Both the position numbers and the translations under genes were made by a program. DNA of 64,000 nt from a virus. The notes below the pieces were generated by a model, which saw only the letters and a program-made list of their open reading frames with translations, did no database searches and was not told the origin of the DNA. Each line of letters opens with the position of its first letter. The first letter of the stretch is position 1. Location of the stretch: positions 26,614 through 90,613 of IMG/VR virus record IMGVR_UViG_3300045988_150395; one strand, written 5' to 3'. This document shows positions 2,452 through 4,653 of this stretch, piece by piece.

Positions 2452-2665
2452 TTATTTTATACTATAACCAAAATCTTTGGCATGAAAATATTCTTGCCAA
2501 TAATCTTCACGTTCATTTAATTCTTCTGGTTTTACTTTTTCTATAACCTCAAAAGTAAAATTCTCTGGTCCAACTTCTTGCATTGCTGGATATAATTTAT
2601 TGCGGGTTGGCGTTTCTGCGCCTACTCCACGTTTAATATGCTGTCGCCAACGCTCTCGAATATTG
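2452..2665 (-). CDS. GIY-YIG-domain protein, exon 2 (C-terminal part of GIY-YIG domain)
   Basis: Frame reads CNIRERWRQHIKRG...NKLYPAMQEVGPENFTFEVIE...EELNEREDYWQEYF...GYSIK*, the RW.QH / G.ENF.FE..E / L.ERE.YW part of a GIY-YIG domain. The N-terminal GIYKI..YIGQ hairpin is missing here but sits at the C-terminus of ORF 3862..4653. A splice joins ...QAVNI|RERWRQH in frame. Confidence 0.65.
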
Positions 2666-2699
2666 CATTTTATTTTTGACTATTTTTTACTCTATAAAA

Positions 2700-2825
2700 A
2701 ATTTTTACAGAGGAAACCATTTCCCCTTTTAACTAGCTTCGTTTCCTATAACTAGAGTGCGTATCAATAGCACCGGTACTCCCCCGCCCAGAAGGCCTAG
2801 GGGATAGTCGATACAGGTTCAATGA
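2700..2825 (-). repeat. conserved intron 3' core, copy 1 (homologous to 10255-10380)
   Basis: About 120-nt block ccatttc.c.tttaactagcttcgtt.cct..aactaga.t.cgtatcaatag......cccagaaggc.taggg.atagtcgatacaggttcaa shared between the two introns. Confidence 0.7.
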
Positions 2826-3722
2826 TTAACGGGCAGGATAATTATATCCTTTAATTGGATAAGTTTGTCCTAAATTAATTTTTTTAACAGTATCTCTATG
2901 GATATTATACTTTTCTCCAATCTTTACCATCGTAAGTTTTGTATTTTTTAAATCAGATAAGATTTTAATAATATCTTCTTGAGAAAAATTATTATTATTA
3001 CGAGAATTTTTTTTACGGATTGGATATGTATATTGACCGTAATCAGCAAAAATTCTACCTTGATTAATTGCTCTTAATACTTTTAATGGAATTTGATATT
3101 TTTCTTTTAGTTCTGGATCTATTTTTAAATCCCATCTCCATAATAAATCTTCTTTTAATTCCAATAATTTTTGTTCATCATCAAAATAGTCTTCTAAATC
3201 TTCTTTTTTCGCAGATGTATGGTCATTTTTCCTTAAAGGATACTGTAAATCGTTATTTACATAAGTATATCCATTAGAAATCTTAAAAATTGTAGCTTGT
3301 GATACGTTAAACATTTTAGCAATATCTATATAAGATAAATCTAATCTATTAATTAATAAGTTAATAACTTGGTTTAATTTTTGTTCATTAAAAGCAGCAT
3401 TTTTATTTTCAATACCTTTTTTACCAGATGCGTTGCCTTCTATACAAATATTATAACCTTTTTCTTTATCTGTAGTATTAAAAAATTGAATCCATTTACT
3501 TTCTTTTTCATCTAATAATAATAAATCAGTTACTTGTTCTAAAACTTCAATAGTAGCATCATACTTTTTTAAAGCTTTATCGCAAGGATATTGATTTTTG
3601 CTATTATGCTCTAATGCTCTTTTATAAATACTACTAGCCTGTCCAATATAAATTTTTCCATTGGAATAATTTATTTTATAAATACCACTAATTTTTAATT
3701 TTTCAGTAATATTAGTAATCAC
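2826..3722 (-). CDS. intron-encoded GIY-YIG homing endonuclease
   Basis: 298 aa; N-terminal GIYKINYSNGKIYIGQASSIYKRALEH GIY-YIG motif; located inside the inferred intron. Confidence 0.8.
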   Translation of the reverse strand: MITNITEKLKISGIYKINYSNGKIYIGQASSIYKRALEHNSKNQYPCDKALKKYDATIEVLEQVTDLLLLDEKESKWIQFFNTTDKEKGYNICIEGNASGKKGIENKNAAFNEQKLNQVINLLINRLDLSYIDIAKMFNVSQATIFKISNGYTYVNNDLQYPLRKNDHTSAKKEDLEDYFDDEQKLLELKEDLLWRWDLKIDPELKEKYQIPLKVLRAINQGRIFADYGQYTYPIRKKNSRNNNNFSQEDIIKILSDLKNTKLTMVKIGEKYNIHRDTVKKINLGQTYPIKGYNYPAR

Positions 3723-3877
3723 TGCTATTCCATCTCCCTTCTATATATATTTAATTTTGAGGGAAAATGGGTTAATCAAAGTTTCCCACGAGATTAGAAA
3801 ATATTCTTTCCTCGTTAGCTTATATTTATTTATAAACCCCGCTGATTAGCGGAAAAGTTTTTCACCGGCCAATATTG

Positions 3878-4653
3878 ACCGCTTGCCCAATATAACATTT
3901 TCCATCTAAAATATTTGTAATTTTATAAATACCTGTAACATCTTTATCTCCAATGACTCTACCAACTAAAGCATTATAAGGTTTTTCATAGTATACTTTA
4001 TAAATTACTTTATTAATAGCATCTGGATAACGAATATTAGAACTTACCTCACGTAGTTTTTTAATCTCTGCAACATCTTGTTCTGATAATTGGAGTCTAT
4101 AAAAATCTTGCTGAGATTCCTTTTCTTCTTCACGTTTTTTAGCTTCAACAGCTGCATCTACAAGAGACTTATATCTCTCTAATTCATTTCGGAATTGAAG
4201 AATTTCATTTTTTTTATTTTTAGAATCTTCATTAAAACCTTTTACAATTTCTTCAACTGATTTTAAATAAGCATCTTTATAAGAACTTCTATCTTCTTCA
4301 AGTTTAGCAGATAATTTTTCTGCTTCTCTATCATAAGTATCATTTAATCCATTAATAAATTCTTGTAATTTCATAGATTCTTTATTATAAGAGTCCTTTA
4401 ATTTTGCAATTTCACTTGTATAATTAAAAGATTCTTTAGTTAATGCTCTAAGAGTGCCTCTCATTTTAGCTATTTTAGATTCATAATCTTCATTAGTTAA
4501 ATTAAGAAATTGTTTATTAGATTCTAATTCTTCAATATCAAATTCTAATAATGATTTAGTTTTCTTTAACTTTGAAATTTGATAAATTTCCAGACAAATT
4601 ACAATCAAACCTAAAGTACCTAAGAAAAACATTATTAAATATAATACACTCAT
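3878..4653 (-). CDS. GIY-YIG-domain protein, exon 1 (TM segment, coiled coil, start of GIY-YIG domain)
   Basis: ORF 3862..4653: N-terminal hydrophobic segment, long Glu/Lys-rich coiled coil, C-terminus ...VTGIYKITNILDGKCYIGQAVNI then GR* read-through into the intron. Confidence 0.65.

Follow-up and report, generated by a model that had tools for sequence, protein, structure and literature searches.

A putative mobile group I intron within a phage gene for a predicted membrane-anchored GIY-YIG nuclease

Introduction

The closest described counterpart of the locus reported here is the td gene of phage T4 with its intron-encoded endonuclease I-TevI (subgroup IA2), where likewise the intron interrupts a protein-coding gene of the phage within a conserved catalytic motif, and where the open reading frame (ORF) for a GIY-YIG endonuclease, with its catalytic domain at the N-terminus, is looped out of ribozyme helix P6a. 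We examined a comparable locus within 64,000 nucleotides of viral DNA (positions 26,614 to 90,613 of IMG/VR record IMGVR_UViG_3300045988_150395; this whole stretch is called the window), in which a gene encoding a GIY-YIG domain is interrupted by a 1212-nt insertion that carries a GIY-YIG ORF of its own. The insertion is very probably a mobile group I intron, and the gene that houses it (the host gene) very probably encodes a membrane-anchored, coiled-coil GIY-YIG nuclease; we infer splicing catalysis, the activity and specificity of the endonuclease, and the nuclease function of the host protein from sequence.

The td and window introns share P7.1 and P7.2, and I-TevI structure 1MK0 can be aligned with the catalytic domains of both the window host protein and the window homing endonuclease. 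In td, the sequences of P4 (ACGGGG/UCCCGU-type) and P7 (GACUAU/AUAGUC) are presumably like those of the window copy. The two systems differ in that the td host is an enzyme of nucleotide metabolism whereas the window host is a nuclease of the same superfamily as its invader; in that the window intron has no hairpin between P1 and P3 but has one or two hairpins between the P3 5' strand and J3/4; and in that the window copy is without P9 and the window without an Rfam match. An intron of Enterococcus phage EF1, unannotated in its record where the ORFs are listed as "hypothetical protein", belongs to the same ribozyme family, with identical motifs from P7 to P7.2, covarying helices and a GIY-YIG ORF in the same loop. 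Its host gene and guide differ, its P2.1 is long, and its P9 forms a hairpin with a GUAA loop.

For the host protein the nearest described layouts are those of defence proteins. A membrane-anchored coiled-coil (DUF4041) protein with a C-terminal DNA-cleavage domain is reported to act in anti-phage defence in E. coli (Vassallo et al. 2022, PMC9519451). The window protein shares with it, in layout only, the N-terminal membrane anchor, central coiled coil and C-terminal nuclease; it is phage-encoded rather than bacterial, Pfam DUF4041 and T5orf172 gave no match at E<=0.01 in the window protein and none at E<=1 in five relatives, and PADLOC gave no match of the window protein to the DUF4041 system. 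UzuA (Uzume, PADLOC) has a C-terminal GIY-YIG domain behind an N-terminal region of about 180 residues, as here, but its matches were weak (E 2e-9 and 1.5e-6) and covered only the GIY-YIG part (residues 238-326 and 213-326); the scores were similar to those of generic "HEase" models, and the host protein is not a member of UzuA.

Results and Discussion

A 1212-nt insertion divides the nuclease gene

All features of the split locus, and all genes in the surrounding part of the window, lie on the minus strand. The parts of the locus are:

3878..4653 (minus): exon 1, codons 1-258 plus 2 nt of V259, in continuous alignment with intron-less alleles up to 3872-3878; encodes the predicted transmembrane segment, the long helix, a helical subdomain and the GIY...YIG beta-hairpin.
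2666..3877 (minus): predicted group I intron, 1212 nt, starting CAAUAUUGGCCGG and ending AAAAUG, with its terminal G at 2666.
2826..3722 (minus): ORF for a putative GIY-YIG homing endonuclease, 298 aa, GTG start, with an N-terminal catalytic domain and possible helix-turn-helix-like modules.
2452..2665 (minus): exon 2, the last base of V259, then N260 to K329 and stop; encodes the helix with the catalytic Arg and His, the Glu, and the remainder of the GIY-YIG domain.

An earlier note, made from the letters of this sequence alone, had proposed that the ORF at 3862..4653 ends in the first beta-hairpin of a GIY-YIG domain and that a frame at 2452-2665, missing from the ORF list, encodes the rest. 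The ORF (minus strand) does end so, its C-terminus reading ...GIYKITNILDGKCYIGQAVNIGR before the stop (in a longer quotation ...TGIYKITNILDGKCYIGQAVNIGR and stop). The frame 2665..2452 (minus) begins NIRERWRQHIKRG and ends GYSIK and stop (full reading NIRERWRQHIKRGVGAETPTRNKLYPAMQEVGPENFTFEVIEKVKPEELNEREDYWQEYFHAKDFGYSIK and stop). Joining 3878 to 2665 keeps the frame (776 + 214 = 990 nt; 329 aa), reading QAVNIRERWRQH where the exons meet and splitting V259, and the joined protein has a Pfam GIY-YIG match at residues 241-319, across V259, of 36.2 bits against a cut-off of 22.6, in agreement with the proposal. The predicted ligated-exon junction is GGGCAAGCGGU-CAAUAUUCGAGAG (also given as GGGCAAGCGGU/CAAUAUUCGAGAGCG); within the host protein the intron lies between the GIY...YIG beta-hairpin and the helix with the catalytic Arg and His. 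The splice points suggested in the note, GCGGU/...AUG/CAAUAUUCG, fall exactly where syntenic intron-less alleles are continuous, and its intervening 1.2 kb with a GIY-YIG ORF corresponds to the 1212 nt and the 298-aa ORF listed above.

Close relatives are polymorphic for the presence of the insertion and fix its boundaries exactly. Contig L001 (92.9 kb, encoding the uninterrupted protein P0002) is syntenic with the window, its genes running topoisomerase A subunit, small ORF, ligase, two small ORFs and host nuclease gene, followed by a 96-aa ORF, a 277-aa ORF, YorF-like, AAA_24 and DnaB. Window 4800..2300 aligned to L001 by BLASTN as two adjoining blocks, 90.7% identical, that overlap by 5 nt, and the window therefore carries a clean insertion of 1212 nt; the uninterrupted L001 junction reads GCGGTTAATATC. 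A scan for the predicted ligated junction found two further intron-less contigs, L288 and L289, and from both of them the intron is cleanly absent. L289 (150 kb) shares 95.6% identity with the window along 4.6 kb to one side of the site and 91.9% to the other, and its junction ...TATATTGGGCAGGCGGTCAATATTCGAGAGCGTTGGCGACAGCAT... (also given as GCGGTCAATATT) has two synonymous differences from the predicted ligated exons in about 90 nt; L288 is 92% identical to the window. The exact site GCGGT/CAATAT is found without an intron in genomes 92-96% identical to the window. In six Logan contigs (L004-L009) that are about 94% identical to the window across the region, the complete intron with its endonuclease occupies the same site in five, and the sixth (L008) stops inside the intron.

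The split Val codon is GTC in intron-bearing alleles, the distant L121 included, GTT in L001 (5776..5784), and in the majority GTT or GTA among 78 intron-less homologues. Exon 2 begins with the C of GTC, whose C-G pair closes P10, the helix described below; co-conversion of flanking sequence and a splicing constraint both fit this pattern.

Exon 2 is under constraint

Codon differences in exon 2 between the window and the other intron-bearing alleles were 9-11 synonymous to 1 non-synonymous; against intron-less L001 they were 14 to 0, and for residues 181-329 against L001 they were 28 to 2. Synonymous differences far outnumber non-synonymous ones, and exon 2 therefore appears to be translated in intron-bearing genomes, where by this measure it is under purifying selection; such constraint is hard to explain unless the intervening sequence leaves the RNA. 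The possibility raised in the earlier note, that exon 2 is a decayed remnant of a homing endonuclease gene (HEG), is excluded, the exon being the conserved C-terminus of a widespread family under purifying selection. The search for uninterrupted homologues of the spliced product, which the same note had suggested, found eight in public data, each 312-329 aa long and sharing 86-96% identity with the product across 95-100% of its length, a match far above chance expectation. It also found the 263-aa cluster P0009 (23 sequences, 12 contigs), which is the exon-1-only stub from other intron-bearing genomes and is without a Pfam domain.

Predicted ribozyme structure of the window copy

The elements assigned to the window copy, in order from its 5' end, are:

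3866..3870 (minus): P1 guide GGCCG, pairing with exon CGGU and intron C+1, with a G.U wobble at the splice site.
3870..3876 (minus): P10 guide AAUAUUG (intron +2..+8), forming 7 bp with the exon 2 start CAAUAUU (2665..2659).
3856..3860 (minus): P3 5' strand AAACU, pairing with 2714..2718 (GGUUU).
3837..3854 (minus): P2-like hairpin UUCCGCU-AAUC-AGCGGGG; Rfam places the same hairpin as P2 in L111.
3788..3815 (minus): P4, ACGAGG/UCUCGU, around a short P5 hairpin without the tetraloop receptor of the topoisomerase intron described below.
3771..3778 (minus): P6a 5' strand, within 3730..3778.
Following the P6a 5' strand, up to 3730 (minus): hairpin in which the Shine-Dalgarno sequence GGGAG of the HEG is paired with upstream CCAUUUUCCCUC.
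2823..2830 (minus): P6a 3' strand, with the HEG stop codon inside; P6 3' next.
2678..2830 (minus): the core's 3' half, which over 107 nt shares 85% identity with the topoisomerase intron.
2804..2809 (minus): P7 5' strand GACUAU, then P7.1 and P7.2.
2733..2755 (minus): extra hairpin.
2714..2718 (minus): P3 3' strand.
2690..2712 (minus): P8.
2678..2683 (minus): P7 3' strand AUAGUC.

The final U of the 5' exon (3878) stands opposite a guide G and the final nucleotide of the intron is G (2666), both as expected of a group I intron; in relatives the 3' end is likewise a G (...AAAUUG in L004, ...AAUUUG in L121). Guide and exon covary across the family, as GGGU/GCCC (several members), CGGU/GCCG, and ACGU/GCGU (the topoisomerase intron), and in L004 the P10 pairing is preserved with one wobble. 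The 7-nt CAATATT at both intron ends appears as a direct repeat because the P10 guide is complementary to the start of exon 2; a target-site duplication was considered and rejected, as the sequence is palindromic together with the neighbouring G and forms P10, and as the copies at the two CAATATT positions differ in L004 and in L121.

The Shine-Dalgarno hairpin is in the minimum-energy fold, with a z-score of -0.16 here against -2.26 for its analogue in the topoisomerase intron, and in the two window introns the Shine-Dalgarno sequence is paired by different sequences upstream of the endonuclease start. We offer translational damping of the endonuclease by this hairpin as a suggestion only, the z-scores being weak.

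A family of related introns

The window contains two copies of the core motif CCTGTATCGACTAT...TATTGATACG, one in the split nuclease gene and one in the GyrB-like topoisomerase gene, and the motif is also present in more than 120 viral contigs among the matches listed; of these listed matches about 18 are ORF-less and about 90 carry an ORF (650-1500 nt) in the P6a loop, between P7 and the 3' strand of P4. The proposal of the earlier note that the insertion is a group I intron is borne out by this homology of its core to a large phage intron family with an ORF-less member (L111, 5395-5632) that scores 60 bits on the Rfam model Intron_gpI (RF00028), for which the gathering score is 50 bits.

Covariation was assessed by aligning 39 members with their ORFs deleted and projecting the helices of the window copy onto the alignment; helices slid along it as controls were paired in about 10-67% of cells. 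The results by helix were:

P3: 97% of cells paired in 39 members, with AU, UA, CG and GC types; slid controls 32-50%.
P2: 97% of cells paired in 39 members, with compensatory changes.
P4: 100% of cells paired in 39 members, with a switch between AU and GC.
P7.2: 99% of cells paired in 39 members, with compensatory changes.
Extra hairpin: 94% of cells paired; found in a subset of members.
P7: invariant in 39 members and uninformative for covariation.
P6a: 77% of cells paired, limited by the aligning of variable-length stems.
P8: 64% of cells paired, limited in the same way.

These alignments support a conserved P3-P8 core that includes the P3/P7 pseudoknot.

In this family the P3 5' strand directly follows the guide, and the P2 and P2.1 hairpins lie between that strand and J3/4 rather than P2 coming ahead of P3, a layout that could represent an undescribed variant of subgroup IA. 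A first assignment of P3 to the strand beside J3/4, as in td, was discarded, as the strand in question forms the 3' side of the P2.1 hairpins and as covariation favours the upstream strand. The Rfam alignment of L111 imposes the canonical P3 and flags it as non-canonical, and a search of the literature on P3.1/P3.2 nomenclature found nothing relevant. L094 has, at 3932..4859 (minus), three neighbouring Intron_gpI matches of 84.9, 69.0 and 52.7 bits within about 930 nt, which belong to an intron family other than that of the window.

The putative intron-encoded endonuclease

The 298-aa ORF lies in the P6a loop, with its stop codon within the P6a 3' strand. Its product matched Pfam GIY-YIG (PF01541) with 28.8 bits (cut-off 22.6) and phrog_7168, "homing endonuclease", with E 1e-17 over residues 13-285; several helix-turn-helix matches all fell just under their Pfam cut-offs (HTH_11, 24.0 against 25). 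In alignment it keeps GIY, YIG, Arg, His, Glu and GYN, and the ORF is intact in five relatives at 90-92% aa identity.

The same intron is found at the same codon in L121, where the host gene is a distant homologue; L121 appears to come from a phage with recoded stop codons (TAG), because this gene has in-frame stops at conserved Gln positions. This distribution of the intron argues for horizontal homing. The intron-less junctions of L001, L288 and L289 are natural candidate substrates for the endonuclease.

The predicted host nuclease and its family

The earlier note had described the host protein as having an N-terminal transmembrane segment, a coiled coil and a C-terminal GIY-YIG domain, in a layout unlike that of a typical HEG product. 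The predictions for the spliced protein agree on each point. Its first 20 or so residues are strongly hydrophobic (mean hydropathy of residues 3-21, 2.73) and are predicted to form a transmembrane segment; the AlphaFold2 (AF2) model (pLDDT 88.4) has a single helix at residues 2-185, a two-helix subdomain at 191-233 and a GIY-YIG fold at 241-318. The predicted layout is thus a transmembrane segment with a helix of about 160 residues at the N-terminus and an I-TevI-like catalytic domain at the C-terminus; neither Pfam nor the AF2 model revealed a DNA-binding module. Foldseek matched the model to 1MK0/1LN0 (I-TevI) with TM-scores of 0.80-0.82, and a profile match to the I-TevI catalytic domain 1MK0 (E 1e-7) aligned Tyr, Tyr, Arg, His and Glu. 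The spliced product scored 65.4 bits on NCBIfam TIGR01453 (cut-off 56).

Among 26 family members aligned, reaching down to 42% identity, 64 columns are invariant, nearly all in the last 150 residues, and the alignment ends in GYSIK; Y243, Y254, R264, H268 and E312 are invariant, and so is a Ser that stands in place of the Asn of the I-TevI "GYN". IMG/VR contains at least 504 viral loci of the family, most of them on contigs of 100-200 kb, and in GTDB genomes it occurs only on metagenome-assembled contigs from gut or rumen, many of them 100-185 kb; the gene is a phage gene.

No function for the host protein came from the libraries searched (PHROGs, NCBIfam, PADLOC, Pfam and a viral structure library). 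PADLOC, NCBIfam and PHROGs matched the GIY-YIG part only; none of four NCBI-sourced homologues carries a cluster name; Foldseek gave two full-length matches in the viral library, neither of them named; and the Pfam label PF27841 on P0013, which comes from a precomputed table, was unconfirmed and set aside. Pfam had no informative match for five neighbouring ORFs. Among cultured phages, a nucleotide search matched only 176 nt of the core, in Enterococcus phages EF1/EF5, and 55 nt of the GIY-YIG motif; no close relative is in culture. By tblastn of the spliced protein against cultured phages, the only match extending beyond the GIY-YIG domain was to Phass-1 (40% identity over residues 181-329, annotated "hypothetical protein", filed under "code 15 clade"). 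As a working guess from the architecture, the protein may be a nuclease that acts on DNA at the membrane, in host takeover or competitor exclusion.

Some homologues have in-frame stops at the invariant Gln (L121, L173, L215) or the invariant Trp (L190, L241, L247) of the RW.QH motif, which suggests that the family spans phages with reassigned stop codons. In exon 1, the stretch 3881..3933 (minus; encoding GIYKITN...GKCYIGQA) shares 83% identity across 53 nt with the 5' coding end of the L004 HEG (5962..6011), itself about 94% identical to the HEG of the window (3722..2826); across 55 nt it shares 84-85% identity with endonuclease genes from Bacillus phages LY4 and 250. This likeness may represent shared ancestry, or it may be convergent codon use for the motif; the similar stretch is a possible substrate for recombination.

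Weighing of the interpretation

In the pathway we propose, the pre-mRNA would fold into a ribozyme related to that of T4 td, with P1 (exon CGGU and intron C+1 paired with GGCCG), P3-P8, P7.1 and P7.2; guanosine would attack after U3878; the 7-bp P10 would align exon 2, and ligation of the exons with release of the terminal G2666 would yield the 329-aa protein, identical in layout to its uninterrupted homologues. The I-TevI-type endonuclease of 298 aa would cut the intron-less alleles of co-infecting relatives, whose repair would copy the intron into them (homing).

Three sets of results weigh against this pathway. The Rfam group I scan, a check suggested in the earlier note, found no match in the window at the gathering score or at E<=1, and none in 2300..4800 even at E<=10. 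The window copy is a reduced ribozyme, without a P9 hairpin and with a P5 of only 4 bp, and may splice slowly or need a helper protein. Lastly, none of 78 further homologues sampled is interrupted at the intron site; the intron is therefore uncommon and may not be mobile at present.

The first of these was set aside as counter-evidence because the ORF-less relative L111 passes the Rfam threshold; plausibly the miss is due to the ORF of about 900 nt in P6a and to the unusual order of P2 and P3. Judged from sequence, the copy has the group I features looked for in every case except recognition by the Rfam model itself, which is a matter of detection, not of biology. As to the reduced core, the P9-less relatives L108 and L094 (the latter with at most a weak P9) also have short P5 hairpins, so that P9 and the long P5 seem to be lost together in a form that recurs; a viable reduced form is suggested because these other P9-less members share the short P5.

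The third result bears on whether the intron, while splicing, is an immobile passenger that has lost its endonuclease activity or its target and owes its distribution to vertical descent and precise loss. We regard this as unlikely, though not of negligible probability. It would fit the 0 of 78 count, the wide variation of target-site nucleotides among those intron-less homologues, and the score of the HEG product on TIGR01453, which at 33.8 bits is below the cut-off of 56. Against it, the 298-aa HEG has stayed intact in six genomes with its GIY, YIG, Arg, His, Glu and Asn kept; the same-site intron in the distant TAG-recoded homologue is hard to explain without transfer; and exact intron-less GCGGT/CAATAT sites exist in the genomes 92-96% identical to the window.

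There is a slight chance that the host gene is itself a selfish element derived from an endonuclease, so that one mobile nuclease gene is nested in another. Its domain is of the I-TevI type, it exceeds the TIGR01453 cut-off, its GIY-YIG domain is 35-39% identical to those of both window intron endonucleases, and 53 nt of exon 1 resemble HEG 5' coding sequence at 83% identity. Yet the architecture is reversed relative to homing endonucleases, with no DNA-binding module detected, and whereas homing endonuclease genes usually decay and are sporadic in distribution, this family is conserved, with its 64 invariant columns and at least 504 viral loci, keeps a syntenic position in relatives, and has the 28:2 ratio of synonymous to non-synonymous differences in its C-terminal half.

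A non-splicing insertion, namely a free-standing endonuclease cassette with a dead ribozyme that has left the host gene a pseudogene in two fragments, would agree with the Rfam result, the absence of P9 and of the P5 receptor, and the truncated, domainless 263-aa P0009 of the gene callers, but is very improbable given the 9-11 to 1 ratio and intact frame of exon 2 in all intron-bearing genomes, the presence of all core helices with a P1 and P10 that fit these very exons, and the viable reduced form to which L108 and L094 point.

Under the preferred reading, of a mobile intron in a nuclease gene, the locus is a standard intron that carries an endonuclease gene and has, as it happens, a target from the same nuclease superfamily; it is less exotic than the earlier note implied in its title. 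Homing endonucleases favour conserved motifs, and here that motif is GIY-YIG. The unusual point is that the product of the target gene shares the catalytic fold of the invader, a curiosity that needs no new principle or mechanism. A more elaborate reading combines a domesticated membrane nuclease of the I-TevI type, an HEG specialised on sequence encoding GIY-YIG, and possibly a variant subgroup IA layout; that all of this holds together is doubtful. Such a domesticated nuclease of large gut phages might act at the membrane to destroy the incoming DNA of competing phages, or that of the host. If the combined reading were true, a homing endonuclease would parasitise a gene descended from its own kind, and carriage of the intron could change how the endonuclease of a competitor sees the locus.

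Gene callers yield from such a locus a domainless 263-aa stub and an unlisted tail, and the nuclease becomes invisible in intron-bearing genomes; the same loss of annotation is expected for many of the more than 120 related introns, among the matches listed, in viral contigs. The natural intron-plus and intron-minus alleles at a precise site, in phages 92-96% identical, offer a system for the study of homing in uncultured gut phages, and the locus points to an uncharacterised family (the at least 504 viral loci) of predicted membrane-anchored GIY-YIG nucleases.

The topoisomerase intron and other RNA features of the window

The second copy of the core motif belongs to the following element:

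10207..11300 (minus): paralogous group I intron in a GyrB-like topoisomerase gene, with its own GIY-YIG HEG at 10374..11084.

The topoisomerase gene is split at DADV/DGAHI, and splicing would restore DADVDGAHI. Its P9 ends in a GAAA loop, and its P5 contains the 11-nt receptor CCUAAG...UAUGG. In the region bounded by the 3' strands of P6a and P3, the two window introns agree at 91/107 positions (85.0%), in line with the figure of about 85% given in the earlier note for the 3' core; identity is 74.8% over the entire 3' arm and 54% over the 5' arm. Yet another intron of this family, the third, splits a homologue of a 283-aa gene that in the window (1315..2166, minus) is uninterrupted and lies two ORFs downstream of the split nuclease gene; it is found in L005 at 7496..9369 (81% core match; ORFs of 135, 233 and 121 aa) and in L014 around 5480. 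In these phages a swarm of related introns is spread over different genes of the replication region.

Elsewhere in the window, the GOLLD RNA model (RF02032) had a full-length match at 47243..47702 (minus), of 99.6 bits (E 6e-25; gathering score 150), in the middle of a tRNA gene array that extends over 36.6-54.9 kb with 24 genes by ARAGORN. At 48963..49100 (minus) there is a 138-nt Rfam tRNA match of 46.8 bits where ARAGORN makes no call; this could be a tRNA with an insertion or intron, or it could represent two overlapping partial matches.

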